A stretch of 63,954 nucleotides of DNA, filler included, from Licmophora abbreviata (Eukaryota): the NCBI GenBank assembly GCA_900291995.1. It is 8 parts of 8 records of this genome, joined end to end, with 100 filler letters (N's around TTAATTAATTAA, not from the genome) between each part and the next. Parts side by side here need not be neighbours in the genome. Positions count along the whole stretch, not along the records: positions 43,244 to 54,970 come from OLMU01004190.1; 7 more parts are not named here. The stretch is one strand, 5' to 3'. This document shows, piece by piece, positions 3,821 to 60,661 of the stretch. The notes beneath the pieces were generated by a model. It worked only from the letters and a program-made list of their open reading frames with translations. It searched no databases and was not told where the DNA came from. Positions within the stretch are counted from its first letter, which is position 1. The number at the start of each line of letters is the position of its first letter. Both the position numbers and the translations under genes were made by a program.

Positions 3821-4295
3821 TGTGTATTGTGATGTTGTAGCTGTAATAAGTCTGAAAAGTGATTGCGACAGTAGCTAGCAGAGTACCGGTATGATATGAT
3901 CGACTGACTCGCTTGAGGTTTGCTCATGGAGAGGTACATAAGTACTGCTAAATGCGGTATACTAGATGACTGCACTCATCCCATCTCTCCCGATTCCTCG
4001 GCGTGACATGTCGTCAAATGAACCGTTTGCAACGGATTACATTCGATCAGAAAAGATGCTCTCACAGATTCCCTCATGAAACGTGCTCCCCGACGCTTCA
4101 CGACATATTTAGTTATTCCGGGGACAGAATCTGAGACTGCCAGCGACCCCAACCGTGACTGCACCCTTCACTTTTTGGCGCTGGTGGACTTCGACATCAC
4201 GCGGGACATGGACACGTTGGATCGCGTTGAGTCCTTATCTCGGCGGCAACGTCCACAAAAGGGCAGTTCCAAACCCCATTCTTTTGACGAGAAAC

Positions 4296-5591
4296 ATGAA
4301 CATCCTCCTACTGATTGTATCAATCGCCAGTGTGGTTCTGTCTTTCAACCACGCTCTCGTGCGAGCTGCTGCTCCTCTCGGAGGCGTGTGCGGGGACGAT
4401 CTGGACTGTGACTCTGATCTCTGCTCAGGCGACGGAAAGTGCATCTGTCGTTTCTATGATCACTATCCTTGTGACGCATCGCAGGTCTGCAATGGAGAAA
4501 CTTGTATCAGTGTGGAACCTGACTCTGTGGCACTGGGAGGCTCATGTCGGGAGACGAGCCAATGTCAAATCGGAGAGTGCGTTGTTCTCTTTGGAGGCTC
4601 GAGCTGCGTCTGCAACACAGAGACTAATGAAGGGTGTGAAGACGGTACGATATGTGCATATTTAAGTCAGGTTGCCGATGCTCCTCCGAGGTGCTTCGTT
4701 CCGGAGGGAGGATCGTGCAGTGACGAATATGAATGTCGTTCGACCAATTGCGTCGACGGCAAGTGTGCGGCTTGCAATCCCTTCATCAACGAGGGCTGTA
4801 ACAACGGCGAAACCTGCATTGGGGACGACCTAAGTGGATATGAGTGCGTAGGTCCTGATTTTAAAAAGGAGCTTGGAGGCCCATGCGATAAAGATCCTGA
4901 CTGTCTCTCGAATTTCTGCGACTTGGGCAGTTGCGCTTGTAATATCGGGGGAAATCACGCAGGTTGTGGGGCGATGCAGGTTTGTGGGACTGATGGCTTG
5001 TGCGCTGATGTTGAACCAAACTCCCTAGAGTCCGGGGACCTCTGTCGGGAAACATCCCAATGCATTGTCGGAGAGTGCAACCCGAGCTTCTTTGGAGCCA
5101 CATGTGGCTGTAGTACAACGAACAACGACGGCTGCGAAGAAGGCAGAGTGTGCGCATATGCCGATTACCTCGCTGACGCCTCTCCGGAGTGCGTGGTCCC
5201 CGAAGGAGGAGCTTGTGTTGACCAGTCTGATTGTATCACTTTCAATTGTGTTGCTGGAATGTGTGCAACTTGCTATCCTGGCCTGAACGTTGGATGTGGT
5301 TCCGACGAACAATGCATAGGCGATGACGTGATGGGGTACCAGTGTGTCGGCCCAGAGGAGCCAGTGTGCGAGTTGAGTATGGCTTGCTGCGCCGACGACT
5401 GCTGCGGGGTTGGAACGACGTGGGACACAAACGCCACACGCTGTCTGGCGGACAGTGCGTCACTCGGATGGAACGGCGAGCATTCTGAAGATTACGTGCC
5501 CGGGTGTGACCACCCTTGCTGCGAAGGACTATGCTGCGGATCTGGGACGTCCTACGATGAGACCATCGATTACTGTATGCCGATGTCGTAA
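4296..5591 (+). CDS. Secreted acidic Cys-rich protein with an internal tandem duplication
   Basis: ATG 4296 gives signal MNILLLIVSIASVVLSFNHALVRA. Very Cys/Asp/Glu/Gly-rich. Duplicated CRETSQC..GEC...CAY..ADA.P.C.VPEGG...CIGDD..GY.CVGP module. Confidence 0.85.
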   Translation: MNILLLIVSIASVVLSFNHALVRAAAPLGGVCGDDLDCDSDLCSGDGKCICRFYDHYPCDASQVCNGETCISVEPDSVALGGSCRETSQCQIGECVVLFGGSSCVCNTETNEGCEDGTICAYLSQVADAPPRCFVPEGGSCSDEYECRSTNCVDGKCAACNPFINEGCNNGETCIGDDLSGYECVGPDFKKELGGPCDKDPDCLSNFCDLGSCACNIGGNHAGCGAMQVCGTDGLCADVEPNSLESGDLCRETSQCIVGECNPSFFGATCGCSTTNNDGCEEGRVCAYADYLADASPECVVPEGGACVDQSDCITFNCVAGMCATCYPGLNVGCGSDEQCIGDDVMGYQCVGPEEPVCELSMACCADDCCGVGTTWDTNATRCLADSASLGWNGEHSEDYVPGCDHPCCEGLCCGSGTSYDETIDYCMPMS

Positions 5592-5634
5592 GACAGTGTT
5601 TCTTTTAACTTTGGATTATGTTGTTAACGACATA

Positions 5635-6885
5635 TTATCTCATTGATCGCATAATGCTCTGTTGCAGCAATCGAATCCCATTTTCTAACACACTCCGTCT
5701 CCACGCTGGTGTACGGACATAAAACGCTGGACGAGTCTGTGTCAGAGCCCAACGGTGTGCTTCCTCTGCATCTAGATACTGATACGCCATGTTTTCAAGA
5801 ATCAGCGCCTTGCCTACTAGAAGAGTAGGGATGGTCCCAAACTCTTGCGTCACAAAGAGCGCCATGTCTCGCCGGGACGGGGAAGAAAACAGTTTCAAGA
5901 CGAAAGCGTCGAGCATGCCCATGGCAAACTCATAGCCAGCCTTGACCTGGTCACCGTGGTGATCCAAGCCTGGAATTGTCGATCCAGGAAACAGCTCAGC
6001 GAGGTGTTCCGACGACCGTGCGTCCGCGGAAAGGAGCGTATCTTTGCCGCTCTTTCCCAGTCCAGTGTGCACGTCGATCCATGTCACTGGGCAACTAGTA
6101 TTGGTTTCCCGTACAAGTTCTGGTAGCTTCTCTTCCATAAATTCCCTTAGTTTTTGTAACGACGCTTGCAATTCTCGTCCGCCATAGAATATTCCGTTTC
6201 GGTTGTGGTATTGTCCCGTAACCATTGCGCGCTTCAACTCGGTGATTCTGAACTTGACAAGCTGCATCACATTGCGAATCCAAAATCCAACGTAGTGATC
6301 CCAAAGTGTCGGAGCTCTTCTTGGATTGAAGAGTGCGGCATCAAAGTTGTCGTAAAATGCCACGTTGGGGTCTCGTGATAGCGCATCTGCCCATTCCTCC
6401 GTGTGCAAGGCATTGCGGTTGAGATCGACGTTGTGTTCATTCGCACGACGAAAGTGCGCCATTCCATGCGGGTTGACCGCGTGAACAAAAACGATCGTCG
6501 GAGTCTGCTGCTGACTTTGGAAGCTTGATAGCCAGGCTGTCTGAATTGCACTTCCGGCATAACCTTCTACTCCATGCACTCCCGATGAGTGGACGATCAG
6601 GCCGGGCAGTTCACCGGACACGATGGCAACATCTGTCGTGTAGTTCTCCACAATTGGGAGCGAATACAAGGTAGCTGACGCACTCTCCGCTGCTGTTCTG
6701 AATCGAGCGCGAGCTTGGTGGTAAGTTTCCGAAAACACTTCGCAGGGAGTCACTGCGACACCGTGGTACTGCTCGAACTCCAACACGGAATCATTGACGC
6801 ATGGTTCATGCCTGTTGCTGCGGAATAGAGAAGTTCCGGCGAGAAACAAGGCCAAAACTCCCACGAGGAGACTCAAGAGGATCAT
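5635..6885 (-). CDS. DUF2817 / M14 zinc carboxypeptidase-like protein
   Basis: SSGVHGVEGYAGSAIQ, VHAVNPHG..RRANEHNVDLNRN, IDVHTGLG and TQEFGT motifs. N-terminal hydrophobic anchor. 5' end lies near a gap, so the start is uncertain. Confidence 0.85.
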   Translation of the reverse strand: MILLSLLVGVLALFLAGTSLFRSNRHEPCVNDSVLEFEQYHGVAVTPCEVFSETYHQARARFRTAAESASATLYSLPIVENYTTDVAIVSGELPGLIVHSSGVHGVEGYAGSAIQTAWLSSFQSQQQTPTIVFVHAVNPHGMAHFRRANEHNVDLNRNALHTEEWADALSRDPNVAFYDNFDAALFNPRRAPTLWDHYVGFWIRNVMQLVKFRITELKRAMVTGQYHNRNGIFYGGRELQASLQKLREFMEEKLPELVRETNTSCPVTWIDVHTGLGKSGKDTLLSADARSSEHLAELFPGSTIPGLDHHGDQVKAGYEFAMGMLDAFVLKLFSSPSRRDMALFVTQEFGTIPTLLVGKALILENMAYQYLDAEEAHRWALTQTRPAFYVRTPAWRRSVLENGIRLLQQSIMRSMR

Positions 6886-6948: not shown

Positions 6949-7048
6949 NNNNNNNNNNNNNNNNNNNNNNNNNNNNNNNNNNNNNNNNNNNNTTAATTAA
7001 TTAANNNNNNNNNNNNNNNNNNNNNNNNNNNNNNNNNNNNNNNNNNNN
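6949..7048. other. Assembly gap linker (artefact)
   Basis: N44 + TTAATTAATTAA (stops in all six frames) + N44. Confidence 0.98.
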
Positions 7049-8608: not shown

Positions 8609-10596
8609 ATGATTATGCGCCACCATCAGAAACGAAGACCGCTGTTGTCGCTCCTTGCTGTACTTTTGTCGGTACAGTCCATCAAGGCAGGAGTTCGAGA
8701 CGGAACGACATCTGATCCAACGAACGACGAGTACACCGATTACACCGATACCATCACCATCAATTCCATCCAACAGCAACATCGGAGGCTCAATGATCCC
8801 AGTCTTCATACGCCTAAGAGTCCCATTACTGGTGTCGCTCTTGTTACGGACGAGCAAGACACGCAAGATCTGTTCAAGCACGCACAGTATTCCACTCTAG
8901 TAAATGTCGATGAGGTGCCGACCCCCTCCCCTACACACGCCATGGAATTTGTGCTCGATTTGGGCACAAAGAGTCAACAGAAAATCATGACATCCAAAGA
9001 CATGATGAAGTCCTCTACAACTGGTAGAAAAAGCCCGAAGGCGCCCTCATTCAACGACATTGCTCCGAGTTTCGCAAGTGGGGATGGAGAGGCTCCCAGT
9101 GCTTCCAAAGGAAAGAAGACTGCGAAAGCGCCATCATTCATCAGCGCACCAAGCATTGCAATGGACCCGTCCGGNNNNNNNNNNNNNNNNNNNNNNNNNN
9201 NNNNNNNNNNNNNNNNNNTTAATTAATTAANNNNNNNNNNNNNNNNNNNNNNNNNNNNNNNNNNNNNNNNNNNNGCAAGGCACCGAGTACACCGAAAGGA
9301 AATGCACCTTCATTGCCGACGTCTCCGACGGCTGCACCTGTGACTCCTACGGCCTTCGATCCGTTTGGCTCAGATGCCCCATCGGCTCTGCCGTCGACAT
9401 CTACAGCTCCTTCCACGTCTCCCTCATTTTCATCAAGCAAAGCGCCATCTAGAATGCCGGTGACAGTTCCTTCAAATGAGCCATCTTTTGTACCGTCGTT
9501 AGCACCAACGGCTTCACCAGAGCCTTCCGCTTCTCCCTCGCTCGTGCTGAGCAAAACTCCGTCTGGTATGCCATCAACTGCCCCTTCGAATGTACCGTCA
9601 TTGGCTCCATCGTCCATGCCAACGTCTTCGGCGGCCCCTTCTTCCGGACCATCGATGGTACAATCAGAAGTACCATCAGTAATACCAACGACATCAAGGT
9701 CTCCGTCCATTATGCCAACATCTCCACCGACAAATTCGGCTGTACCTTCTTCTAGACCATCAATGGTACCATCAGAAATCCCATCAATGTCGCCAACGAC
9801 GTCGAGGGAGCCGTCCATCATGCCCACATCCCGACCAACAACTTCGGTTGAACCTTCTTCTGGACCATCGATCGCCGCATCTGAAGTTCCGTCAGAGAGT
9901 CCAACAACATCTGGGGCTCCATCGCTCCTACCCACATCCCCACCGACAAATTCGCCGGTACCTTCGTCTGGACCGTCAATGGTACTTTCAGAAATGCCAT
10001 CAATATCGCCATCGACGTCGAGGGAGCCGTCCATCATGCCCACATCCGGCCCGACAACTTCGGTGGAACCTTCTTCTGGACCATCGATCGCCGCGTCCAA
10101 AGTTCCGTCAGAGACTCCAACGATGTCCCCTTCATCTGGACCATCGATAGCGCCGTCCGAAGTTCCTTCAGAGCCTCCCACCTTATCTAGGATTCCGACT
10201 GCCATACCGACCTCCACAACCACAACTTCTGAAGCCCCTTCGGCTAGCCCGACAACTGCAATGGCTCCATCAAGTAGTCCAACGGTAGCTCCGTCATTAC
10301 CGCCTTTCCCGCTCGATATGACAGAGCCCCCAAGCGGCAAGGCGCCGTCTGTAGGAGACGCCCCCAGTGCAAAAGCCCCGTCCGCGAAAGGCATGCCGAC
10401 ATTCAAAGCGCCATCTTCGATATCCGAAGATGACAGTGCCCCCTCCACAGGAAAGTCTTCTTCGAAAAAAGGAAAAGGTGGACCAGGGGGAAAAGGAAGA
10501 TCCAGGGGAAAGGGTGGACCGGGGGGAAGAGGCAGCTCGAAAATGATTCGAAGATCTCGACGAAAGCTCCATAGTACGAAACACTGGCCGACTTGA
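8609..10596 (+). CDS. Secreted Ser/Pro/Thr-rich, Lys-cluster (silaffin/mucin-like) protein, interrupted by a gap
   Basis: Signal peptide, RRL motif and KAPS repeats. Frames on each side of gap 9175-9274 are compatible (..MDPSG|KAPSTPK..). C-terminus GKSSSKKGKGG...RRKL. Confidence 0.75.
9175..9274. other. Assembly gap linker (artefact)
   Basis: N44-TTAATTAATTAA-N44. Confidence 0.98.
9637..10130 (+). repeat. Coding tandem repeat, 108-nt (36-aa) unit, ~4.5 copies
   Basis: PSS(G/R)PS units begin at 9637, 9745, 9853, 9961 and 10069. Confidence 0.85.
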
Positions 10597-14322: not shown

Positions 14323-15823
14323 ATGAGGGTCGCGATGAAAGAGATTGGGAAAGCGAATTGCCGGGAAGAGGTTCCTGCCATCCCTCAGAAACTGTCACGG
14401 CGAAGACCAGCGGTGCTGGTCCTCCTGCTCATCGCAAACCTCTGGTTGGCGTCGTTTAACATTGTTTGGACTCATGTCTCGGGTCGATTGTCCACAGATT
14501 TCTTCGTATGGCTCGACGAAGCAGAAGAAACGGTGTCGTCAGCCACATATCTTCGCGCCTCGGAACCAAAGCCCTCAGTCGTACTTGCCTCCAATACCAC
14601 TGCTCCAAAAGGCAAAATTGCGTTCATTACCTTTTCGCATCTCATGAACGACACCGAACGCTTTGAAGAAATGGTGATCGGCTCCCTTGATACTTGGCTC
14701 GAAAATGATGTTTACTTTGTTGTTCTAACAAACGAGTCAAAGGAACGATATTCCACATTTTGTGAAACGCACACTTCTCACTGCGATCGTATTCGACCGA
14801 TCTGGACGGACTGTCCTGAAGGTAAATTCCGAGAAGGCCCCTGCTGCAAGCAAGAAAAGGGGCTCTTGTACATGTACGAGAACTATATCGACGAGTATCG
14901 GTGGTTTGCGTTCATGGACGACGACGTGTACATTCGCAAGGAGTACCTAGAAGACCATGTTCGTCCACTGCCCTACCATTCGTCCAACATGATTTTGACA
15001 TCAGGTCGTGATGGAAACATAGCAAAATTGGGAAAGGCCGGTTTCATGCGCCGCAGAAGAGCCCCGTATTGGTGCTCGTACGACGAAGACTTTCAGTATC
15101 CATGGGGACAGCCGGTGGTGTATTCCCAGAGCGCACTCCAACGCATCTCGAATGGATTGCGGCTGGGTGGACTGGTGAAACAGTGTGTCGAGTATGACGT
15201 TACGCATGATGTTGGGAATGCTCTGTTTCATTGNNNNNNNNNNNNNNNNNNNNNNNNNNNNNNNNNNNNNNNNNNNNTTAATTAATTAANNNNNNNNNNN
15301 NNNNNNNNNNNNNNNNNNNNNNNNNNNNNNNNNGTATGACGTTACGCATGATGTTGGGAATGCTCTGTTTCATTGGATGTATCAATTGCCGGAGTCTCGG
15401 ATCTTGGTTTTGGACGACGAAAAGCAGATTGGACCTGAGTTTCTCAACTACCACGCATATCATGGAGGTAAGCACTCGTTAGTGCTGTCTGGGTACGCTG
15501 TCGTTTTTCAGTTAGTAACTTATTGTCTTCATCGCTCACTTCGCATTGCAGTCAACAAGGTCACGCGCATGGCGCCCAAGCGCACCGTCGAACAGTTTAA
15601 CATGTCCGCAATTCACGTACGTCGGATCCAAGCCGAGCAAATTCATTCCTCAAAAATTGAGTACACGTTTCACCATGTGAACGGATTCCGCAAAACAAAA
15701 TCCTTTCTTGACCATGGTGATCCGGCCACATGGACGGAATGGCATACCATGCCAGTGACGGACTGCCAGGGACCATACAACGCTACCACGGCGACAGCGG
15801 ACAAGGAGACAACTTCTGGATAG
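14323..15823 (+). CDS. Type II membrane glycosyltransferase, GT31/Fringe-like; split by an overlapping gap; probable intron 15468-15551
   Basis: N-terminal TM and WFAFMDDDVY DxD motif. 42 bp duplicated on both sides of the gap allows an in-frame join. Confidence 0.75.
15234..15333. other. Assembly gap linker (artefact; flanks overlap by 42 bp)
   Basis: 15192-15233 is identical to 15334-15375. Confidence 0.97.
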
Positions 15824-41483: not shown

Positions 41484-41583
41484 NNNNNNNNNNNNNNNNN
41501 NNNNNNNNNNNNNNNNNNNNNNNNNNNTTAATTAATTAANNNNNNNNNNNNNNNNNNNNNNNNNNNNNNNNNNNNNNNNNNNN
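41484..41583. other. Assembly gap linker (artefact)
   Basis: N44-TTAATTAATTAA-N44. Confidence 0.98.
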
Positions 41584-41683: not shown

Positions 41684-43656
41684 TTACTCTTGAGCACGGT
41701 CTTTGTTCTTCTCTATAAGGTCAGCGCGTAACCTCTCTACTGGCTCGTGGAGCGTCCCGTCGTCGTTCAGTCGGTACGAGCCGATAAGAAAGGTGGGGAG
41801 CTCTTTAGAGGGGTTTTCTTTTTCTCGCGGAATTAGATGGAGAGTCGATTGAGAGCAGAGAGCTGCCACATGACTGAAACTTGAACCACAGTGGATCAAG
41901 ACATCTGCGTTAATCATGGCATGCAGCGTCGTTGGAGCATCTTCAATTAACAGCTGACAGTAGAGCTTCTGAAGTCGACAACAATCAAGAGCTTTCTGAA
42001 TAGGACCCGTTTTCTCTTCAGCGGTGATGTAGATTATGGATCGAATGCCTTCGAGCGCACTCGTCAGGGTGCCTGCAATATTCGTTTGAAAGGTCGTACC
42101 GTTACCGAGGGAAATATCTTTTGTCCGAATATGCCACACTATCACGAGGGTACTCGGCGGTCGCAAGTCGCGAAGTGCAAAGAATCGTGACCGCTGCATT
42201 GCTTGCATGAAAAATGGTCGAGTCAGCTGGTGTGGGTCGTCCGTTTTATCATGGAACTTGTCCATGAAGCACCATCCACCGTCACACAAGTAGTCCGAGT
42301 AAAAGCGAGTCGTTTTGTTGCATTCGAGCGTGACATTCTCATGACGAAATACAGCGTCCTGGAACTTGCCATCATCAATCTTGATATTGCTGTCGCTGCC
42401 AGGACAGAACTTTCTGATTTCTCGCCTGGTAATGAACACTTCATCGAGAGGGAGAAAGCCCGCGGAAACAAGAAAGTTATAGCGTCCATGATCCCCAGTT
42501 CCCTCCAGTCGATTGACGTCCAACCGAAACGGAGTTCCCGTTGACATTGAGAACATGATACCGAGCACAATATCCCAGACGCGGTGACCAAGTCCAGCAA
42601 GATTGTTTATGCTCACGATGGCGAACGCGCTACACGCAGTGTCGGGGTACCGTGTAATGTTGATGCTGTGTTCGCCGTCTTCTTTCAGACGACGAAGCTC
42701 ATGTTCGCTCCAGCGGTCCTCCAATGCATCAGTGAGGTTCGTCCATTCACAAACGTGCATATATATTTGCTCTTCAACCGACTCGTGCTTGTTCGCCAAC
42801 GACGGTGGAGTGACCGGAACAAGGCCGCTCCTCCGAAACATTGCTGGCGAAAAGGAGAGTGAGGGCGATGTTGTCCCGTGAACAATGATTTGCTCTGGTA
42901 TCCAGCCCACCTCAGAGCCAATGAGAGCCTGGAGCATGACATCCTTGTACGGTCCCTCTAGTAATGCCAGCCGAACCGAGTACTTTGTAATGTTCAACAC
43001 AGGAGCCCAATCATGTACGGACGAAACGACGCCATGATTAAAAACGTCGTCCAAGGAAATTGTCTCCGTTCCCGCGGGAAGCCAAGGAACCAAGGTATCA
43101 CGGCTCTTGTTTTCGGAATATCCCAGCGTCAAGACAACATTTTNNNNNNNNNNNNNNNNNNNNNNNNNNNNNNNNNNNNNNNNNNNNTTAATTAATTAAN
43201 NNNNNNNNNNNNNNNNNNNNNNNNNNNNNNNNNNNNNNNNNNNACATTTTGATCCCTCGGTTCCCACGGACAATAGCTACAATCAGGACACTGCTCTATG
43301 GATGGCCTTGTACAGACTTTATCACGAGATCGTATTATCTGCTCGTCGTCGCCGTCCATGGCACGATAGACCATATCCTGAATTACAGAACGTTGCACCA
43401 CCCTCGATAGGCCCCGAGGGAGGATGCACTGTGCTCTTGCTCCTTCCAGAGAGGGAGCATGACTGCCTGCCGCTACCGGTGTATCTAGTACTGCGACGCC
43501 GTGGAGCAATCGGGGTTTATCGACTGTCGATGATGGTATCAGAAGTTGAGACGGATCCGCAAAATTGTCTTTCTCGTAGTGCCACAACAGTACCAAGTAT
43601 AAAACGCATGATGCTAACGCACATATCTTGCTCATCAGCCGAACAATCTCTCGCAT
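41684..43656 (-). CDS. Type II membrane glycosyltransferase, fucosyltransferase (GT11/GT23)-like; split by a gap
   Basis: GLGHR, VWHIRTKD and ADVLIHCGSSFS motifs. 7-bp flank overlap (ACATTTT) gives in-frame PWEPRDQNVVLTLGYSE. Confidence 0.7.
43144..43243. other. Assembly gap linker (artefact)
   Basis: N44-TTAATTAATTAA-N44. Confidence 0.98.
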
Positions 43657-44097: not shown

Positions 44098-46386
44098 TTA
44101 CGCCTCAATCTCGAATTGCACCTCGTCGGAGTCATCGATGTTCTTGGTTGGATCCGGATCATCGGCTGTCTCCTTGGGGGGCTTGTTCTTGTGGGTAGAC
44201 TTTGTCGGCTCCAACTGAGGGCCATCATCCTCCGGATCATCGATCTCAGTGGCGATGCCGGCATTGGCAAACCAGTCGTTAAAAGCATGCGCCGCATCGT
44301 CCTCAATCTCGTCAAGGAGGCTGTCGTCCCAGCCGAGCTTGCGCGAAACTTCGATAAGCGCATACGTGGCTGCGAGCATCAAGTAAGCCACAAAGAACAT
44401 CCACTGCTCGGCGTGTTCCCAGCAGTCTGACGGGTAGGTAATGCACTGCTCCCAAGTCGGCTTGCTGAAGTTATCGAAACCCGCTTCAGGAACATGGATG
44501 ATGCCAACCGCAGCGAATACGGCTCCAAGCATGGCCCAGATAGCAGCGTTCTTCCACTTTCGATCAATCACCATAACGAGCATTGCTGCCCAGACAAAGG
44601 AGACCAAAAGAGCTCCTCGCTTCCAGGCAAGGACTCCATACCACTGGGAAAGACCAGTCCGGTTGAGGTTCCCCCCACCTACTGGGTCTTGAAGAGGGCC
44701 CATGGCGGCTACGTTCGTAACCCAGTCGAACACGGACGGGAAGAGACCGACCAAGTAGGCCGAGTAGTGGCGGGCCGGCATGAAGTTCAACGCCTCCTCG
44801 TTGATCATCAATCCTACAAAAAGAACAATCTACCGTATAGAAAGAGGCAGAAAAACGAGAGTGTCAGTCAGATTCCGTGTAGAGCCCACACCATGTCCAA
44901 ACACAATTCTCACTTACAGGGCCAATCGTAGCTTGGTTGACGATGGATTGTATCAACGCGAGAATTCCAAACCAGGAAAGAACGAAAAAGATCGTTCCGT
45001 TGGCGAGAGAGTATCCCGTAAGGGCACCGGAGCGCTTGTGGGCAGGGTGACCAATGTAAACGACCGTTCCGAACGGCGAGCCAAAGAAGGAGCAGATCAT
45101 GGTTCCAATACCGTCGGCGATCATGGTCTCGCGCACAGGGTAAGGATCTCCGGCATTCTTGGCACTCACGAGACACATGAGAGTACTCGCCGTGGCGGCG
45201 ATTCCAATGGGGATGACAATGCCGAGGTAATCCTGGACCAAATCAAAGCCGTCAAAGAGCTCGGAGGCACTCCAGTCCGGTCCATACCACTTGATAAGGT
45301 CCCAAGCCTCTTCAACCCTCTCTTTTTCGTTGAGGCCCGTAATCCATCCAAGAGCGACACCAACGATGATGACCTGGAGAGCTTCTGGGAGACGGAACCA
45401 TTTGTAGCCGACTCGAACGCCGGCATACCATCCAATGAAGACGAAGCCAATGGTGTAGTAGCCAACAAGGGGGGCGGCAATAGAGTTTGTAACCTGGACA
45501 ATTGAGAGAAATAGGCAGCGCACAGTGAGTTGGGCGCACAGTACCTCCGTGAATTGGGACACAGAGCCAGCCATCCGAGTCTGCGTGTCACATACCTGCT
45601 CAAGTCCTAAGAAGGCGAATCCAATACCCGCAATGGGGACAAGGAGAGCTGAAGGAGGAACATATCTAAGGATGAGAGGTCCGAAGACGGACAAGACTGC
45701 CGAAATGAGGCCCGTGATGAAGTTCGCGGCCAGAGCAACCCTGTAAGCAATGGTGAAGGCTTCCTTAGGACCTTCAGTTCCGGCCAAACTAAAGTAAACC
45801 GGGTCTTTATTGTGATGTGAGGAAAGAGCCAAAAGCGTGTCAGTGCAACGGAAGTTCGGACAAATAATGACCTAACTGGAAGTAAACTTACACATGATGT
45901 TGAAGACAAAAGAGAATGCAGCCGGTGTGTTCAGTCCATAAGGCTGTGCCGTGTAGGGGCGACCCCAGCGATTGGTAAGGCGGATGCCCATCCAGGTGTA
46001 GTAGGCGTTTCCGACGATCAGGGAGAGGCCCACGCCCGGGACAATCTTGCTCCAAACGACCTCGTTGATATCGCTATCGTCCACGCCGAAGTTTCGCATA
46101 GCCTGGATGGCAAAGAGAGCTCCAAGGAGCGTGGAAAGATTGTCGAAGAAGAGCTGACAGAGGCATCCCCAGTCTCCTCCACTGCCGATCGGTGGAGATC
46201 ACAAAGAACAACGTATGGTCAGTACGGAGCGGCACAGAGAAAGTAATTCCGCATTGAGAAAGATTAGCAAAACTGAGCTACTCACGTCATCCGAAAGCCC
46301 ACGCAAAAGTCCTTGAGCTCCGCTCCAACTCTCTTGAATCCGAGAGGGATTTCATGGGTCGGGATCTTCTCAGTTTCTTCCGCCAT
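44098..46386 (-). CDS. NCS2/AzgA-like nucleobase (xanthine/uracil-type) permease; exons 46386-46286, 46181-45892, 45804-45596, 45493-44918, 44829-44098
   Basis: Multi-TM. GD...LFFDNL, TAQPYGLNTP, SAKNAGDPYPVRETMIADG, FGSPFGTVVYIGHPAHKRSGA. Four GT-AG introns keep frame. Confidence 0.88.
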
Positions 46387-46791
46387 GGTTGCCAAGTTCT
46401 TACTTCAACGGCGAAGAAGATATGCCGCAACAGATGGGCAGAGATACGTAGTTGTGACTTGAAAATTTTCGGATTCAGAACAATCAATCGGGTCAACTTC
46501 AAAAGTGCCGCCCGCCGTTTTGAACTTTGAAGATGGACGACATCGGTCACTTAAGGAGGGGTGTCAAGGGCATACATCAATTATGGAAGGCGTCTTCTCA
46601 ACTTCCTTTCGACGACTGGAAGTTTGACAGATCCGGGGGTTTTCTCATTCCAAACTGTTCTTGTGCCGCAAGGGGTGCACAAGGGCTGATCTGACTGTTC
46701 TCCTTTTTGTTCCGTGTCAGACTGCAAACAGTGTTACCAGTATTGTCTACTTGCTTGTACCGGAAAGGCCAAAAACTTCTTCTGTTTCACC

Positions 46792-47711
46792 ATGGCCACC
46801 TACATACCAGCAGATCCCTATCGTTGGCCGTTCAATGGCGATCTGACGCCATCCAATACTTGCATCATTGTCATCGGTGAGTTTTCTTTGCGTGTGCGCG
46901 CGGATCAAGCTGTTGCAAATTGGAATTTTGATCGACTGATTAACTTTGTTTTCCTCTCCAGACATGCAAGTCGACTTTTGCGCCCCAGGTGGCTATGTCG
47001 ACAAGATGGGGTACGATATACAGCTCACGCGGGCCCCGATCGAGCCTATTTCCAAAGTACTCGAGTCTATGCGCGCCAAGGGATATCACGTCATGCACAC
47101 GCGGGAGGGACACCGTCCTGACATGGCCGACTGTCCTCCCAACAAGGTCTGGCGAAGTAAACAGATTGGAGCAGAGATCGGGTCGATGGGTCCTTGTGGA
47201 CGTATACTTATCAAGGGAGAACCTGGATGGGACATTATACCCGAACTGGCGCCGATGCCGAACGAAGTCGTCGTGGACAAGCCTGGGAAAGGATCGTTCG
47301 TTGGTACTAACCTGGATCTGATCCTTCGAAGTCGTGGCATCTGTAACATTATCCTTGCCGGTGTCACGACAGATGTATGTGTGCATACGACGATGCGAAA
47401 TGCGAACGATATGGGCTATGAGTGCTTGTTGTTGGAGGTGAGTGAATTCGTGAAGAGTGAGGATGCTGCTCAACGAGGTGATAGAGTGCAGTATCTAGTA
47501 GTACACTCTGCGAAAGCTGGCACCGTCTCTCACCGAACGTGTGACCAATCAAATTTGTTTGTTGTTGTTGTTGTTGTTCTCCTTGCAGGACTGCTGTGCT
47601 GCGACCGATCCTGACAACCACAAAAGTGCCATAAACATGATCAAGATGCAGGGTGGCGTGTTTGGATCGGTGTCTGACTCCAAGGCGCTGATTGCCGCGT
47701 TGTCGGAGTAA
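46792..47711 (+). CDS. biuH: Biuret hydrolase (isochorismatase-like cysteine hydrolase); exons 46792-46876, 46962-47437, 47589-47711
   Basis: [51 protein letters not shown] and [11 protein letters not shown] triad and BiuH-type signature. Confidence 0.88.
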
Positions 47712-47797
47712 TTATTGTACTAATCAGCCGTGTACGTTATTTTATGAACATGGCACATGACGAAACGTTTTCTGCTGAAGCAAATGAGAGAGTGCGT

Positions 47798-49086
47798 TTA
47801 GAGCTCATCGTTTGCTTGTTCTACAATTGGATAAATCTCTCCTTGCACATAATCCACTCTGTACCCAATCTCGTGGAGGGACTTTGTGACTTCATCCACT
47901 GTGAAGTGATAATTGATGCGAGCCGTGTCGTTCCCCACCCCAAATCGTACCGTTCTTTTGCACTTGAACGGAGGACCGTACTTTTTGAGTTGCCTGGCGG
48001 TGGGACGATTCTTTTCTGCATGTCGGACTGCTCTTCGAATACCATCCCAAAACCGCTGTTCTGCGTCCTTGGCTTCCTTCAACTCTTCTTGAGAATACGA
48101 ACACTCGTCACCCGTCTCGCCGTTCTCACTGCGACACTTTCTTGACACCAAATCCAACACGGCAGTCCGATCCTCATCTTGCACGCCCGCCCACAAGGCC
48201 AAACTCTCTGGAAAGTTCGTCACTTGCGTACCGTCGGTCATGGTACGGATGGGCGGACTGGGAACATGACTGTCGTGAAACCACACGGCCGTCACGAGTG
48301 GCACTGCCACATGTTCCAAATCAGTCTTTTGTTGTCGATGTATTTCACCTCGTACAAAATCCTTGACGACTTTGTAGTCATCATCATCGTCGTCGTCGTC
48401 TCCGCGCAGTTCCAGTTGACCCGTGTCGGGTGTAATACTGAGAAAACGTGGTTCGTGGTTGAGGACACTCATGACTTGCCTTGCATCGATAAGGTATATC
48501 CAATACTCGTTGGCATGTTCGTGACATCCACTGGCAAAGACATTACTGTTAATCAGAGGCTGACCGGGGTCGTACTGTGTGTAATTTATAGAATCATACA
48601 AAATACAAATCAGCATCATCAAATATTATAGGACACAGTAGACTGATGCAGACGAGAGATCGTACCGTGTACTGTCTCCAACCCTCCTGCATGACATCGA
48701 GAAATGCCTTGTAGCCTCTCACGAGCGAGCGTCCGAGAAAGATCGCCCTAGATTCATCTTGTTGTCCAGCGTGATAGTCGAGATTGGCTAATAATGATGA
48801 AATGGTGCACGATGATGTATAGTTTTGATGTCAGTTATTCGGAGATTTATGACGACGTGAGATCAGTTTTGAGTGAGTGTTAGGGAGAGTGCGCGTACGA
48901 CTTAGTGTGTGTGGAAGTTGCTTCCCGATAGTGCTTACCATGATCTGGAAAACCGTCTTGCAAGCCGCCGCTCACACCCACCAAGAGGTACTGACGGTCT
49001 TCATCGGGGACAGCCCTCGTCGTCGTTCCAAGCGAACCCCACACAAAGATGACGAGCCAAAGGAAGTGAGTGGGATTACGTCTCAT
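47798..49086 (-). CDS. Unknown ER-lumen protein (signal peptide + C-terminal NDEL); exons 49086-48939, 48787-48666, 48574-47798
   Basis: Signal MRRNPTHFLWLVIFVWGSLGTTTRA. Two GT-AG introns give a ~348-aa product ending ANDEL. Confidence 0.7.
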
Positions 49087-49357
49087 GGTAAACGAGTGAA
49101 TTGCTTTTGCTGAAGCCTAGAATAAGCGCTGCGATGACTTCAGTTTGTGAGGGCGACTTCCATCATGGTCATCAGCAACGATGAGAGTGTTTTGATGTGC
49201 GTGGTGAAACCTTTCAAACTTTGGATCTTTGGATCTTTCCCATTCCTACTCAAGATTGGCGTACAATTCAGTACTGAGAAAGATCTTTTTCCAAATTCCA
49301 AAATTGACAAAAAGATTCTTCCATAACTTGTTCGGAACCAACACATTAACACATCAC

Positions 49358-50241
49358 ATGGTCACCATGACTTCCTCCACTGCTACGACAGTCGAACTCG
49401 ACATGGAGCCCCACAAGGGGGCCATTGATCTCTCCACGACGGCGCTTATCATCATTGATATGCAGGTGAGCGAGAATCGTACCAAGAGGAAACAAAGCGC
49501 TCTTACGCACAGTACACGCGCGCAAGTCACACGTGTTCGTGTGTACTGAGTACATCTTATCGCTGCTTACAGCAACCGCGTGTCTGACGCATCCCCATTC
49601 TTCTTCTTTTTGTGTCTTTCAACACACAGCGCGACTTTCTGGAAGAGGATGGGTTTGGCGATGTTCTGGGGAACGACGTGAGCAAACTGCAGCGCGCAGT
49701 GGCTCCCTGCAAGGCCCTCTTGGACACGGCCCGTGCATCCAAAAGCCTTGGTCTCATTCTTCATACGCGAGAAGGACATCGGGCCGATATGGCTGACGTG
49801 CATCCGCATAAGAATAATAAGAGGGATGCAGAGGGGAAAGTCCTCAAGAGTATTGGCGAAAAGGGACCGATGGGGCGTATTTTAATTCGGGGGGAGCCGG
49901 GACATGACATTATTCCAGAACTGTATCCGATGGCAGGTGAACCGGTAGTGGACAAGCCTGGAAAGGGATCGTTCTATGCAACGGATCTAGAGGCCATCTT
50001 GTCGGTCCACAAAATTACGACCTTGTTGGTCTGCGGTGTGACGACGGAGGTGTGCGTACACACGACGATTCGGGAAGCCAACGATCGGGGCTTTCATTGT
50101 ATAGCGGTCAGCGACTGCTGTGCTTCCTACATTGACGAGTTTCATCGCGTGGCCATGACTATGATTTCGGCGCAGAACGGATTGTTCGGAAGTGTTACAG
50201 ACTCGGAAAAGGTCATCAAGGCGTTGTCCACAGAAAGTTGA
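49358..50241 (+). CDS. trtA: Triuret hydrolase-like cysteine hydrolase; exons 49358-49465, 49630-50241
   Basis: [54 protein letters not shown] and AQNGLFG. TrtA-type rather than BiuH-type signature. Confidence 0.82.
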
Positions 50242-50483
50242 AAAAGGGAGTTGGACGCTTTCTTGAATTTAGCGCTCTTCCACGATGACCTGCGACTACC
50301 GCTGCCCACTGCTCGTAGTCGACATTCGAAAGCTCAACTATGTAATAACATTCATTGATTTATTGCCGCCATGACTTTAACTGTGTCATGAGTGTGCTAA
50401 GATGGTCTAGTACCGGCACTGGTAAATATACCACTGCATCCATTGCCCTCCATGCACGAGTCATACTATCATACTTCCACTTG

Positions 50484-52292
50484 TTACTTGGAAAAGTTGC
50501 TTTGGATGCGAGACAATATATAGTCGCCCGCGGTAATGGGTTCGTGTACTCCATCCGTTTCAATCAATGCCGACTGGTCCGCCTGTGCAAAGAACGCAAT
50601 ACTATAACGCGATGATGGCGGTGTACACTCTTCCGGAGTTGGCATTCGCACACGGTGCAAATTGGAATACAACCTACCGTTGCTCCACCTGGCCAACATG
50701 TCTCCAATGTTCACAGCGATGCCTCCCTCGATCGGATCAATCGGCGTCCAGCGAGCTCCTTCGTTCGACGAAGGATCGCGACGTGGGTTCGAGCAGCATT
50801 CTAGACCGGCTTGACCGACACGTTGGAAGAGCAGCGTGACGCAGGTCCAGTCCGTGTGAGGCCCTGCGCGCCAAAAGATGCGACCGTCGTCGTCGGGCGT
50901 CGTCATTTTCTTGGCCGTCTCGGCATCCATGGGCGTGTAATGAAGCATGCGAAGTGTGCACTGGCCGTCTGGGGCCCATAGACTGTGATCAACGAAAACA
51001 TGGAATGCAGTAAGCTCATGTGGACAAACATGCGGCATGCAAGTCATGCATAAGTACACAAACATTCACACTTACTTGTGCGCCCTCGAGAGTGTTCCAG
51101 GCTTCAAATTGGGACAAGCACGACTTTCCAAGAGGTCCATGAGGCGTTGTGCAACTTTGTGCGTCTTGGTCGCAAGGCCCTCTGCGGCCGAACGAAAGTT
51201 GTCCGGGGCAGTGGGCCACCGGCCGTCCATGACTCCCTCGCGAAACGTAACTTGCATGCTCTCCTTTTGATCGGCTGTTCCTGTGGAAGGACGAACCTGC
51301 GACATCTGTATACGAATACACAGAAAAGCAGAATGTCAGAGTCAAAAAGAGAAGAACTCTCATCCGATGAAAGAGGCCATAAGCAGAGCATACTCGTATG
51401 ATAGTTCCATCTGTCGGCACACACGTACATATTCATACCCCGCATTCAAGTTACGCGCAAAGGGAGACATGGCTTCCTTATCACTCTGCGCAAAGAATCC
51501 AGCCGACGCTTCAAAGGCTGCATCAATGTCGCTCTGCGGAATCCCATGTCCCGTGAGACTGAAGAATCCGACCGTCGTGGCGGCCTTCCAAAGCTGCTGG
51601 GCGATTTCGTCGTCGGTTCCTTTGGACATGTCGATGACAGGAACTGCGTAGTCGTCGTCGCCAGGGACAGCAGCAGCGGCAGCTCCAAGTCCGCTTGCAA
51701 AGAGAGAGCGCTCTGTTTCAATGTCGGCGTTGGCTTGAGACTTGCAGTTGTTGATATTCTCAACATGAGTCTGACATCCTTTCCAGATCCCGCTTTCCTT
51801 GTGAACTTGCATCGCTTCGTCACTAAGCATCGACACGACTTCCATAGGACGCGTCCCCTCCCTTCCCATGGCATAGAGCTGCTCCACTGGGATATCGAAT
51901 CCCCCCGGTCCTGACAATCGCGACAGTTCTTCCGAGGATGCTCCGTAGACCACCCGACTCACACCGGACCAGTAAATCGCACCCGCACACATGACACAGG
52001 GTTCCGTCGACGCGTAGAGTGTACAAGTCTTCCGCTCTACTCGTTCGGAATCAACAGCGGACGCCATCAAGCGCACCGCCTCGACCTCTGCATGACGAGT
52101 GACGTCTCCCGTCCCACCTCGTTCTTTCTTGGCCTTGGATTGATTGTGACATGCGACAAGGACGTTTCCGTCCTGGTCGGCCAAGACGGCGCCAAAGGGC
52201 ATGTTGCCACGTTCGACGGCCTTTTGACTTTCGGCAATGGCCTGGCGAAGGCAGGCTTCATCGTAGGGCCTAGAAGAAGTCGTAGATGACAT
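50484..52292 (-). CDS. Fusion of a cytidine/guanine-deaminase-family Zn domain and a 2OG-Fe(II) dioxygenase (DIOX_N + 2OG-FeII_Oxy); exons 52292-51429, 51305-51076, 50982-50484 (~530 aa)
   Basis: PFGAVL, HAE and STEPCVMC, followed in the same exon by VPVIDM..GFFSLTGHGI. Later HTD, NIGDMLARWSNG, LHRV and RYS. Confidence 0.88.
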
Positions 52293-52738
52293 GCTTCTTG
52301 TCAACAGCAACGCAAATAAGGGAGCAGAACAAGCACAGCACGACAGCCGACAGTCAAGTCCCACCTTGATTTTTGCAATGGAAGACTTCAAATTGACTTC
52401 ACTTTTTCTTCCGAAAGTGTCGTCGAAGTTTGTGAAGGAGTTTGAAGTTTGAGAATTGCGACATCGAGCATGACGTCATGCACGAACACCCATCGTTCGA
52501 GCTCGTATGATATGATAAAGCCCGTGGTAATGGCGTGACTCACTCGACTCGAAACTCTACGTCACTCGTGACTGACTCGTGAATAGGTGTTACGTCGGGC
52601 GCGCGCGCAGTCGCGCCTGTCTCAAATTGAAAATCTCCACAAAATCAAAAATTCACAAAACACCTTCTCAACAATCATTGCAATCAAGCATGGATGTGAT
52701 GTGTCGATGGTCCAAAAGCAGCAGCGCAGCATTACCCC

Positions 52739-55700
52739 ATGTCGTCTTCGAATCATCATCGCCGCCTTCCTCATCACAATCAGAATAGGGATCGAGGTCC
52801 TCGTCCTGATCGTCCTAAATCGTACCAGTCTTCGAATTATTTTAATTCTTATTCCAATCAGAGAGAAATTCACTCCTCCGTGCATCATCGAAACAACGAC
52901 GACTACGGGTACCAAGGACAACAACGACAAAGTAATGTTTGCCGTCCTGACGAGGTCCGCTCTTTTCCTCCGGATCGCTACCCTAGCAATGCAGTAGCAT
53001 CAGCACACGAGACTCGTCGTCGACGCACTCCACCACATGAAGATCGTGTACGAAGAAGAAGCAGTCATCATAACGCGACGGGTCATGGCGACCGTGGAAG
53101 CACTACTGTCGCTACTGCTGCTAGCTTGTCTACACGAAGGTCAAGATGGTCGTCATCCTCCTTCAATGGAGGCGACCACCGCCATCACTCAGGAACAGCC
53201 TCCTTGACGGAAGAGGAAGAAGCTGTTGCGAGGGGTACTGGAAAACGGTGTCGTCTACAATGTCATACTAGTACTAGTACCGAAGAACGGAACGAATCAG
53301 AACCACTAGACGAATTTGGTCGACGCTTGATTCGTCCTCCTAGAAACACTGGTTTGAAGGTGTCGTTGTCGAGAGAGATTGGATCGACGACAAGACTACC
53401 GTCAACGGAACAAGTCATGAGCTCTACTAGCATTGATGACCAGCTGCAACAAGACGTGCCTGTCACGACGGATGATGCTCCCATGAACAATGTGGACATC
53501 GATGACGATGGCAATGATACGCCTGACGGAGGAGAACATGGACACGACGAGCAAACAATAGGAACGGCGGCCGCTGTGGCGGAACAAGGCTGCCCCTTCT
53601 TTTACAATGAAACAGATGGAAAGCCCATGGCATTTTGCTGCGCCAAGTGTCGATGCAGTCCAGAACAACGAACCTTGTTTACAGACGCAATTTCAGTGGC
53701 GGAGGACGAAAATTACTACTATCATCGCCACTGCTGTCACAAGATCAATGAGATGGGAGCGACGCCTTTGCAAAAGGTCTTGGATAGAATCAATGAGCAA
53801 TATGAAAAGGAAGACTTCCACGGCCAATATCCGGCACCCAAGCCAAAGCTTAATGCCATTTCCGAGAGCACGCTGAAGAGAGAATACATTCGAAAACTCA
53901 AGAAGGAGCAGACCAAGTCGGAAAACAATGACGAAGATGCGGATCCTGCAATGCTGCTCGAGACGAATGAACAGTATAATAAGAACCGTCAAAACTTTTC
54001 CAAGGTTGCGAAAGAGCGTGAGAATGATCGTCGTCCAGCTGTAGTATTGGACGCGTTTGCCGGGGTGGGGGCTGCATTGGTCGTGCTCAAGCGTCTCCAG
54101 ATTGCCATGTCCAAGGTTATTCATGTCGAACATGACAAGATTGCAACTCATGTAGCTCGGCATGGTCACGATTATCTGTATAATCCGAAGCTGCAGGACG
54201 ATGGGATTGAGCACGTGTTTTTGCCCAAGTTTGAAGACATCGACGGCGACGTCGATCAGTTTCTGGAGGATTATGGGCGTACGTACCGTTGTTGTGTTGT
54301 GTTGCACCTTGTTGGAGTGACAAGTTTTTGTTTTTGGGGTGGTTTTGGTCTCAAACTCTTTGTACAAACTCTCTCTCTCTCTCTCCTCAGCGATCGACAT
54401 TATTATCGGAGGCCCCCCATGTACGGACTATTCAGCTATAAATGCCAATGCCCAGGGACCCCAGGGCGCTCAAGGGCAGTTCTTGCCTCGCTTCGCCGAC
54501 TTTATTCAGAATGTTCAGGCGAAACAACCGGATCACCCTGTCTACTATTTGATTGAAAATGTCGTATTCATGGACGGACTTGACAACTACAATCTTATCG
54601 AGAATATCACAGGCGTTGTGGAGACGAAACAAGACGCTCTTTACTTTTCTCCGTGTCGAAGACTGAGATCTTTTTGGATCAATGTACGGTAGACAAGTGC
54701 TGATGTATATGTGTCTCAAATTGGAATGCTTGTCTTTTGCTCATCAATCCATTGTTTCTTCGTTTCAGTTTCCTCTCAACGTGGCTTCGCGCGGATTTGA
54801 GGAGTCCGTCCCGCTTCGTCCAAGCTCCTGCTTGCAGGATGGGTGGCAGTTTCCGGGAGAAGGCGTGGAAGAGATCGTACTGTGTAAAGTCAATACGTTC
54901 ATGGCATCGAAAAGCCGTATCAATGACGACCGAATGGTCAAAGTCAGACCCCGTCCTGACGGCAAGTATGNNNNNNNNNNNNNNNNNNNNNNNNNNNNNN
55001 NNNNNNNNNNNNNNTTAATTAATTAANNNNNNNNNNNNNNNNNNNNNNNNNNNNNNNNNNNNNNNNNNNNAGTCAGACCCCGTCCTGACGGCAAGTATGA
55101 ACGAGCCCACTTTTCTGTTCTGGAAAGAGAGCGAATGATGGGATTCCCGGAGGGATACGTCCAAGGCGCGGGTACGTGACGACACGTTTTGAATATGCAT
55201 GCCGTGCGCTTGAGTGGAATTGTAAAGAGACTCATGTGTGTTACTTCTACTACTTTTGCTTTCCCTCCACTCAGTTGCGCACCTGTTCGACGAGCTGTTT
55301 CACAAGGCGCTGGATGTAATGCCATTGCCCGATGAAAGTAAACCCGAGACTCTTTGGAAGAATCGTCTGGATCCAAAGTTTTTTTGTTTCTCGGGAGAAC
55401 CAGTCAAATATGAGGAAGCATACAATGAGAGTGAACAGATCCCCTACGTTCGCGTCCTCATGAGTCCTCCACAAGTCACGGCAACCGTAAGTAGACTAGT
55501 TTGTATCTGGCAATGTTCGTAGTTTGACGATTGAATCTTTTCTCACCGTGTTCTAACGCTCCTTGGCTACAACAGCGGAACTTTTTCAATGCAGAGGACT
55601 ATTCGAAACACCTGCTCGGAAACTCTTTTTCTATTCCAGTCGTCGAATACCTGTTGAAGAATCTCTGCGACATCTTTGCAACGCGCGCATACGACGTCTA

Positions 55701-60561: not shown

Positions 60562-60661
60562 NNNNNNNNNNNNNNNNNNNNNNNNNNNNNNNNNNNNNNN
60601 NNNNNTTAATTAATTAANNNNNNNNNNNNNNNNNNNNNNNNNNNNNNNNNNNNNNNNNNNN
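60562..60661. other. Assembly gap linker (artefact)
   Basis: N44-TTAATTAATTAA-N44. Confidence 0.98.

Follow-up and report, generated by a model that had tools for sequence, protein, structure and literature searches.

In a 63,954-nt stretch of DNA from the diatom Licmophora abbreviata (assembly GCA_900291995.1; the whole stretch is called the window here), positions 44098-52292 hold five spliced genes, g1 to g5, that form a candidate cluster for nitrogen scavenging from triuret- and biuret-type polyureides. Their order and orientation is <g1 g2> <g3 g4> <g5, and they encode a putative permease, a putative biuret hydrolase (BiuH), an orphan protein, a cysteine hydrolase resembling the triuret hydrolase TrtA, and a deaminase fused to an oxygenase (Table 1). 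Gene models were built from stop-to-stop frames, GT..AG borders and homology, and single exons or in-frame stretches of the five genes served as queries in the database searches. The models are collinear with homologous proteins over most of their length: residues 5-630 of g1 with P0363 (63% identity), residues 10-342 of g3 and 12-239 of g4 with the full-length homologs P0389 and P0242, and residues 10-528 of g5 with the Seminavis protein P0144. The pairs g1/g2 and g3/g4 are divergent, g4 starts 1.6 kb past the end of g2, and g5 converges on g4 across a gap of 242 bp. The initial annotation of this DNA had described five adjacent intron-containing genes in two divergent pairs plus one convergent gene, and all five were recovered in that order, orientation and position. 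Bacterial contamination is ruled out because the genes carry introns and the G+C content of the cluster resembles that of its surroundings. The named best relatives of the cluster proteins are all from diatoms (Fistulifera, Seminavis, Cyclostephanos, Chaetoceros, Attheya, Nitzschia and Amphora).

Table 1. Genes and upstream regions of the Licmophora cluster (window coordinates), and bacterial loci in which BiuH is linked to a deaminase (locus coordinates)
Feature	Position	Strand	Remarks
g1 permease	46386-46286, 46181-45892, 45804-45596, 45493-44918, 44829-44098	-	635 amino acids, 5 exons, 4 introns
g2 BiuH	46792-46876, 46962-47437, 47589-47711	+	227 amino acids, 3 exons, 2 introns
g3 orphan protein	49086-48939, 48787-48666, 48574-47798	-	348 amino acids, 3 exons, 2 introns
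g4 TrtA-type cysteine hydrolase	49358-49465, 49630-50241	+	239 amino acids, 2 exons, 1 intron
g5 deaminase-oxygenase fusion	52292-51429, 51305-51076, 50982-50484	-	530 amino acids, 3 exons, 2 introns
g1/g2 common upstream region	46387..46791		405 bp between ATGs; AAGTTTGA at 46620; putative promoter region
g3/g4 common upstream region	49087..49357		271 bp between ATGs; AAGTTTGA on the minus strand at 49214; putative promoter region
g5 upstream region, common with a divergent C5 DNA methyltransferase gene	52293..52699		AAGTTTGA at 52445
BiuH-deaminase operon L077	4585-10468		without TrtA
Similar BiuH-deaminase loci L023, L027, L049, L053, L054, L058, L067, L076, L163, L172, L175			without TrtA

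The reference for these genes is a bacterial pathway that, according to the part of PMC7948467 available, consists of TrtA, (TrtB), BiuH and AtzF and occurs in Herbaspirillum sp. BH-1 and Rhizobium leguminosarum, with structures 6xix, 6xje, 6azo and 6azq. The same text lists six positions at which TrtA and BiuH differ and reports mutagenesis that ties several of them to triuret activity. These positions were read from an alignment of g2 and g4 with 80 bacterial relatives from fetched loci and 10 diatom-like proteins, and are given below in TrtA numbering. Exon 2 of g2 matched the crystallised R. leguminosarum BiuH (6azo) with 259.7 bits and ca. 70% identity. Scored exon by exon against the NCBIfam BiuH model NF050097, g2 gave 19.2, 293.9 and 47.1 bits; the cut-off of the model is 370. 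The Asp-Lys-Cys triad and the cis-peptide Thr are present: g2 shows D, K, K, T and C at these sites, and so do all 31 bacterial BiuH proteins. At all six discriminating sites g2 has the BiuH state: Y35, Y41, S134, D160 and T187, which are invariant in the 31 bacterial BiuH proteins, and V205, which occurs in 30 of them.

The best solved relative of g4 was TrtA (6xix, 207.5 bits), with BiuH at 196 bits. The catalytic triad is kept, and four of the six discriminating sites are in the TrtA state (F35, N41, E160 and Y187); Q202 is retained as well. The corresponding bacterial pattern of F, N, A, E, Y and I was found in 13/13 TrtA proteins encoded next to BiuH, 11/11 hydrolases encoded next to a permease and 4/4 AllF-associated hydrolases, the lone exception being an M at position 134, and Q202 is invariant throughout these three groups. 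The remaining two sites of g4 are S134, which is BiuH-type (A in TrtA), and L205, a conservative replacement of the I in TrtA. S134 recurs in 8 of 10 diatom-like g4 orthologs, and the portion of PMC7948467 available reports that A134S is not harmful to TrtA.

IQ-TREE was used for a quick maximum-likelihood tree with 98 rows, and branch support came from the Shimodaira-Hasegawa-like approximate likelihood ratio test (SH-aLRT). It placed g2 inside BiuH, in a set of 24 BiuH rows with SH-aLRT 96. Gene g4 fell into a clade of 11 diatom-like sequences (SH-aLRT 98) among bacterial hydrolases adjacent to permeases or to AllFGK; the 39-row group to which it belongs (support 92) is sister to the 13-row clade of BiuH-adjacent TrtA, with a joint support of 99. 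By sequence, signature residues and tree g2 is predicted to be a biuret hydrolase, as first annotated. The description of g4 as triuret-hydrolase-like also holds in terms of residues and tree: g4 is predicted to be TrtA-like and lies within the TrtA superclade, in a sister clade of the characterised enzyme rather than in the clade of that enzyme.

Gene g5 encodes a cytidine-deaminase-fold zinc deaminase (residues ~1-170) followed by a DIOX_N plus 2-oxoglutarate (2OG)-Fe(II) oxygenase region (~215-530), and the claim of a deaminase/2OG-dioxygenase fusion stands, with both domains over their Pfam cut-offs and with zinc and iron motifs intact. PF00383 matched with 76.4 bits (cut-off 25), and the oxygenase families PF14226 and PF03171 with 53.7 and 66.9 bits, also over their cut-offs. 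The zinc-site and catalytic residues H67, A68, E69, P98, C99 and C102 (motifs HAE and PCxxC) do not vary among the 24 fusions aligned. In the oxygenase half, the HxD...H iron ligands and the RxS motif are read in the model as HTD, the H of NLHRV, and RYS. The best solved relatives of the deaminase half score 33-63 bits and include guanosine, deoxycytidine, tRNA-adenosine, guanine and cytosine deaminases; guanosine deaminase 7dbf is the best of them at 63 bits. Among solved structures, the oxygenase half is closest to thymine dioxygenase 5c3p (62.9 bits). With this Neurospora crassa thymine 7-hydroxylase/thymine dioxygenase, and with 2OG oxygenases of the isopenicillin N synthase-like type, it shares the DIOX_N and 2OG-Fe(II) fold together with the HxD...H and RxS motifs; however, the similarity is low, the g5 oxygenase is fused to a deaminase, and nothing points to thymine as its substrate. 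Twenty-three aligned proteins of diatoms and diatom-like metagenome contigs have the same conserved fusion, at 44-71% identity to g5 exon 1, and it is present in Seminavis, Cyclostephanos, Chaetoceros and Attheya.

Homologs of g1 have been named 'adenine/guanine/hypoxanthine permease' or 'AGZA family' by the Joint Genome Institute (JGI). The g1 exons in the window gave no match to Pfam PF00860; two of four eukaryotic homologs scored 24.1 and 25.3 bits, short of the cut-off of 27, while three bacterial homologs gave no match. A sequence search of the PDB with g1 returned no relative. Foldseek comparison of the AlphaFold2 (AF2) model of P0363 (63% identical to g1; predicted local distance difference test score, pLDDT, 75) matched SVCT1, UraA, prestin, UapA and AZG1 with E values of 1e-7 to 1e-5. 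From this model g1 is predicted to have the 7+7-helix inverted-repeat fold of the UraA/NCS2/SLC26 type, and by sequence it is a putative distant AzgA-like carrier. Because P0363 matches NCS2 and SLC26 carriers equally, fold does not separate NCS2 from SulP/SLC26; the label NCS2-like given at first holds only at the level of fold, and the sequence falls below the Pfam NCS2 threshold. Intron 3 of g1 (45494-45595) spans 102 nt, keeps the reading frame and contains no stop codon, and a transcript that retained it would still give the whole protein, with 34 residues inserted.

Gene g3 encodes a protein with a hydrophobic, signal-peptide-like N-terminus and a C-terminal NDEL, in agreement with its first description as an endoplasmic reticulum (ER) protein of unknown kind. 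We found 114 homologs at E<=1e-3, many of which end in xEEL, xDEL, xSEL or xPDL; these endings fit ER retention, and g3 is probably an ER-lumenal protein. The family (P0388-P0523) consists of orphan protist proteins with the conserved motifs EPRFLSITPD and SLALWAG. The g3 exon searched in the window had no Pfam match, and among 25 aligned family members a single weak PsbU match appeared (E 0.0057). An AF2 model of the family reached a pLDDT of 85, and Foldseek found nothing in the PDB at E<=0.001. Leads from Atlas to a beta-trefoil-type fold scored 0.79-0.81, which is chance level, and a wide VIA-align comparison gave a best Z of 5.0 for a helical hairpin only; both were discarded.

Linkage of the cluster genes in other diatoms was assessed for g1, g3, g4 and g5 from gene records and contig sizes rather than from contig DNA, and this evidence is indirect, though specific. 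In Fistulifera solaris the homologs of g4 (GAX22172.1/FisN_19Lh232) and g3 (GAX22173.1/FisN_19Lh233) are consecutive genes on one contig of 197,685 bp. Furthermore, eight exact contig sizes are common to homologs of different cluster genes: 167,390 bp for g1, g4 and g5; 22,927 bp and 18,636 bp for g1 and g5; 5,543 bp and 7,806 bp for g4 and g5; 22,342 bp and 17,996 bp for g1 and g3; and 5,099 bp for g3 and g5. Homologs derived from MMETSP transcriptomes exist for g1, g4 and g5. The gene pair and the contig sizes indicate that linkage of the non-homologous cluster genes is conserved in several diatoms.

Bacterial loci that combine relatives of the same genes were collected from metagenomes and genomes. 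A metagenome scan with the fusion alignment gave 570 confirmed matches, from which 80 loci were kept; in 78 of these the match is confined to the deaminase half. Nine of the 80 loci have a BiuH gene, 67-70% identical to g2, at a distance of 1.5-2.5 kb upstream of the g5-like deaminase. The operon runs from a BMP-type binding protein through two permeases, BiuH (421.8 bits, over the cut-off) and an ABC ATPase to the deaminase, with an allantoate-amidohydrolase-like gene nearby. In the tree, BiuH proteins of such operons form a clade of their own (12 rows, support 98). The presence of the deaminase suggests that a precursor may be deaminated to biuret or a biuret-like compound. In locus L002 (69% G+C, 421-6018) a deaminase and a 2OG oxygenase, 39% and 43% identical to the two halves of g5, are encoded by adjacent separate in-frame genes 15 nt apart, and the pair is followed by genes for an NMT1/THI5-like binding protein, an ABC ATPase, a second deaminase and the urease accessory protein UreD. 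By sequence this pair appears to be the unfused counterpart of the diatom fusion. Among all fetched loci searched, L001 excepted, L002 was the only one with a g5-like oxygenase at E<=0.01.

Two of the seven closest genomic relatives of g4 (L081 and L084) are followed directly by a g1-like permease. In L081 no other pathway gene is nearby. In L084, from a gammaproteobacterial metagenome-assembled genome (244-4872), genes for an oxidase linked to flavin adenine dinucleotide (FAD), a CodA-like amidohydrolase, the g4-like hydrolase and the g1-like permease stand in a row; this set would be functionally analogous to the diatom genes, with a deaminase and an oxidase of unrelated families. The g4 relatives in L082 and L083 lie within cassettes of AllH, AllF, AllG, carbamate kinase, AH_C and NCS1 genes.

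A further sample was an even set of 401 Pseudomonadota genomes. A g1-like permease was found in 40 of them, with a g4-like hydrolase (55-62% identical) directly beside it in 10 of the 40 loci. In two further loci (L123, 4554-11520; L131, 4537-11505) the permease gene lies between AllF/AllG, the subunits of oxamate carbamoyltransferase, and carbamate kinase plus an amidohydrolase. Ten of the remaining 28 permease loci were annotated and offered nothing informative except for L126, where a deaminase gene lies upstream of the permease. Contig ends truncate several of the permease loci. BiuH over the cut-off occurred in 22 of the 401 genomes: a TrtA paralog lies 1.5-2.2 kb away in 13 of these loci, a g4-like gene 6.3 kb away in one, and a deaminase gene is present in three, which leaves five with none of these. 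A BMP binding protein is encoded in 21 of the 22. Chance co-location of the five genes appears unlikely, because unrelated bacteria link partners of the same kinds and several diatoms keep the genes together.

The Licmophora cluster thus resembles three bacterial arrangements, each with clear differences. With the Herbaspirillum/Rhizobium TrtA-BiuH pathway it shares two paralogous isochorismatase-like cysteine hydrolases of BiuH and TrtA type close together, with the same triad and discriminating residues and an importer alongside. In contrast to that pathway, the diatom genes are spliced and arranged in divergent pairs instead of an operon, AtzF and an AH_C-domain (TrtB-like) gene are absent from the cluster, the TrtA-type enzyme belongs to the sister clade, and two genes are extra, the g5 fusion and the ER protein g3. 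The importer is a secondary carrier, whereas 21 of the 22 sampled BiuH loci encode a BMP-type ABC system. The bacterial modules of a hydrolase plus a long NCS2-like permease contain a same-clade hydrolase and a g1-family permease, but their genes are adjacent and co-oriented, whereas g1 and g4 are ~3 kb and two genes apart, and the diatom permease is nearer to a stand-alone bacterial subgroup. Finally, the bacterial BiuH/BMP-ABC/deaminase operons combine BiuH with a cytidine-deaminase-fold enzyme, a small zinc deaminase that shares ~36-40% identity with the N-terminal half of g5; in bacteria this deaminase is unfused and no TrtA-type gene is present.

The genes flanking the cluster are unrelated to it. 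On one side are an open reading frame (ORF) without assignment, a HAD hydrolase and leucine-rich repeat (LRR) proteins, and on the other a C5 DNA methyltransferase, an enoyl-acyl carrier protein (ACP) reductase and MGAT2. The methyltransferase ORF is long (52700-54700, plus strand), diverges from g5 and has the C5 cytosine DNA methyltransferase motif region at its end (PF00145, E 1e-8, 54321-54692). The two halves of g5 resemble cytosine-type deaminases and thymine dioxygenase, and it is conceivable that g5 is tied to this neighbor through 5-methylcytosine or thymine chemistry. The octamer AAGTTTGA is the sole 8-mer common to all three cluster upstream regions, with one copy in each; the window contains seven copies where 2.75 are expected, a count that 3 of 100 shuffles attain. 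As a common promoter motif it was not counted, since it was picked post hoc and, by a rough estimate, some such 8-mer arises by chance in about one trial in ten. Run X1 (share 0.06) was rejected as evidence of expression: it comprises eight short contig pieces, one of which crosses exon-intron borders of g1 and so reads as DNA. The X1 joint 48399/49591, with a shorter side of 21 letters and unrelated letters between, was likewise rejected. The window also contains seven N pairs, each of 2x44 N with 12 bases between, whose regular layout looks like masking, at 6949-7048, 9175-9274, 15234-15333, 41484-41583, 43144-43243, 54971-55070 and 60562-60661; one pair lies just upstream of the cluster, within a long minus-strand ORF.

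The simplest account of these observations is a diatom version of triuret/biuret scavenging built from a carrier, a TrtA-type hydrolase and BiuH. We consider it somewhat probable that the locus is a cluster of physically linked catabolic genes, with their nearest relatives in bacteria, by which the diatom scavenges nitrogen from polyureides of the triuret/biuret type. The permease g1 would import the substrate. The hydrolase g4 would take one ammonia off triuret to give carboxybiuret, which would lose CO2 spontaneously to form biuret, and g2 would remove a second ammonia to give allophanate. Functions encoded elsewhere in the genome would deal with allophanate: it would either decay to urea, which urease would then split, or be cleaved by an allophanate hydrolase encoded at another locus. 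The fusion g5 would most likely act upstream, converting an aminated N-heterocycle (a purine-, pyrimidine- or triazine-like base) to a compound that enters at the hydrolase steps. Such a feeder step on an aminated heterocycle is suggested, from few loci and in part by analogy, because g5 is linked to g4 in diatoms, BiuH-deaminase operons occur, the L002 deaminase and oxygenase adjoin each other beside UreD, and L084 has an analogous oxidase-deaminase pair. We infer all of the substrates, the order in which the enzymes act, what g5 does, co-regulation of the genes and the later steps, and g5 is the least certain part of the route. The initial annotation had likewise placed deamination and oxidation of the imported compound ahead of nitrogen release, an order suggested only by gene linkage in diatoms and by scattered parallels in bacteria, and had raised a possible tie to purine nitrogen stores.

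Several observations weigh against triuret/biuret scavenging by a conserved cluster. Linkage is not universal: the homologs of g4 and g5 in Seminavis are on different scaffolds, and the one eukaryote-like metagenome contig read, L001 (13.6 kb), which encodes a fusion 55-57% identical to that of Licmophora, lacks g1-g4. Synteny, proposed as a check by the initial annotation, was seen in the Fistulifera gene pair and the eight same-size contig sets and was missing in these two cases. Its term operon-like was an overstatement for separate transcription units in two divergent pairs whose linkage is broken in Seminavis. Gene g4 is outside the characterised TrtA clade and scores 207.5 bits against 6xix, as compared with 307 bits for a BiuH-adjacent paralog; with S134 and a separate clade, its substrate may differ from triuret. 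The diatom permease is nearer to stand-alone bacterial permeases (~33%, 225-243 bits) than to those adjacent to g4-like genes (27-31%, 159-201 bits). The L084-type arrangement was seen once among the ten permease-plus-hydrolase loci, with a weak echo in L161, and no g5-like oxygenase was found in these ten loci or in the 22 BiuH loci. A predicted ER-lumenal g3 would have no obvious place in a cytosolic pathway. The window lacks an allophanate hydrolase, a carboxybiuret decarboxylase and a urease; a tblastn search of it with presumptive AtzF ORFs from bacterial BiuH loci gave no allophanate-hydrolase-like sequence (best E 0.029), in line with what had been noted from the sequence alone.

A different compound may be the substrate of a cluster that is nonetheless real, which we regard as possible but rather unlikely. 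An aminated N-heterocycle (a cytosine-, guanine-, isocytosine- or azapyrimidine-like base or an oxidised purine) would then be imported by g1 and deaminated and hydroxylated by g5, g2 and g4 would act on ring-opened ureides, and triuret and biuret would be side substrates at most. This explanation stays in contention because g4 is outside the characterised TrtA clade. It agrees with the tight linkage of g5 to g4 on short diatom contigs of 5,543 and 7,806 bp, with nearest solved deaminases that act on guanosine, guanine or cytosine, and with a thymine dioxygenase as nearest solved oxygenase. The bacterial deaminases in BiuH operons without TrtA, accompanied by a BMP (nucleoside-type) importer and an allantoate-amidohydrolase-like gene nearby, also fit, as does L084 with its CodA-like amidohydrolase and FAD oxidase joined to a g4-like hydrolase and a g1-like permease. 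However, g2 cannot be told from a true BiuH at the six discriminating sites and has ~70% identity to the crystallised protein, g4 keeps residues tied by mutagenesis to triuret activity, the L081 hydrolase-permease pair alone suggests that the permease cargo may already be the hydrolase substrate, and no ring-opening enzyme is present.

The least likely reading, quite improbable in our view, is that the five genes are neighbors by shared segment ancestry and serve independent functions (purine uptake by g1, scavenging or detoxification of stray biuret by g2 and g4, an ER function of g3, and pyrimidine or 5-methylcytosine/thymine salvage by g5): separate transcription units, the linkage broken in Seminavis and absent from L001, the upstream region that g5 has in common with a C5 DNA methyltransferase gene, an oxygenase half resembling thymine dioxygenase and a different predicted compartment for g3 are in its favor, but gene pairs and triples recur on independent assemblies, including very short contigs, and bacteria repeat the hydrolase-permease, BiuH-deaminase and deaminase-oxygenase pairings.

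The mere presence of triuret or biuret enzymes in algae is not new. In the literature outside subscription journals we found no account of a clustered, spliced and conserved eukaryotic triuret/biuret locus and no description of an NCS2-like carrier, a deaminase-oxygenase fusion or an ER protein of such a locus. The literature searched also contained no diatom biuret hydrolase and, judging from titles and the opening lines of abstracts, no diatom biuret catabolism; triuret was found in connection with phytoplankton only in PMC7948467, and not at all in connection with guanine crystals. In the part available, PMC12625717 reports that nitrifier biuH and trtA are associated with a bmpA-nupABC importer and with allFGHK. 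An NCS2-like permease linked to biuH or trtA was not found in that part, and the available parts of PMC7948467 and PMC12625717 hold no description that we found of the BiuH-deaminase operon type. The bacterial comparison flags an apparently undescribed BiuH-deaminase operon type and ties an unannotated permease family to TrtA-like hydrolases.

To our knowledge, catabolic gene clusters are rare in diatoms. We take the Licmophora locus to be a eukaryotic version of a known bacterial pathway that is real and worth bench work, with the carrier, the two hydrolases and the fused deaminase-oxygenase as candidates for experiment. A much bolder view, which we consider doubtful, is that diatoms took from bacteria and kept clustered the complete front end of a nitrogen route undescribed in eukaryotes. 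On this view the fusion would supply the enzyme step, so far missing, that makes triuret/biuret-type ureides out of a purine- or pyrimidine-like base. Triuret would then arise in marine phytoplankton as a regular metabolic intermediate, or when nitrogen stores are turned over, and not just as a by-product of chemical oxidation, and g3 would join the route as a new accessory. Where triuret comes from in nature is left open in the part of PMC7948467 available, and a conserved oxidative and deaminating enzyme linked to TrtA and BiuH makes this question testable. If triuret/biuret scavenging by this cluster is true, polyureides or their heterocyclic precursors would be a nitrogen source or an internal nitrogen currency for one major group of marine primary producers.

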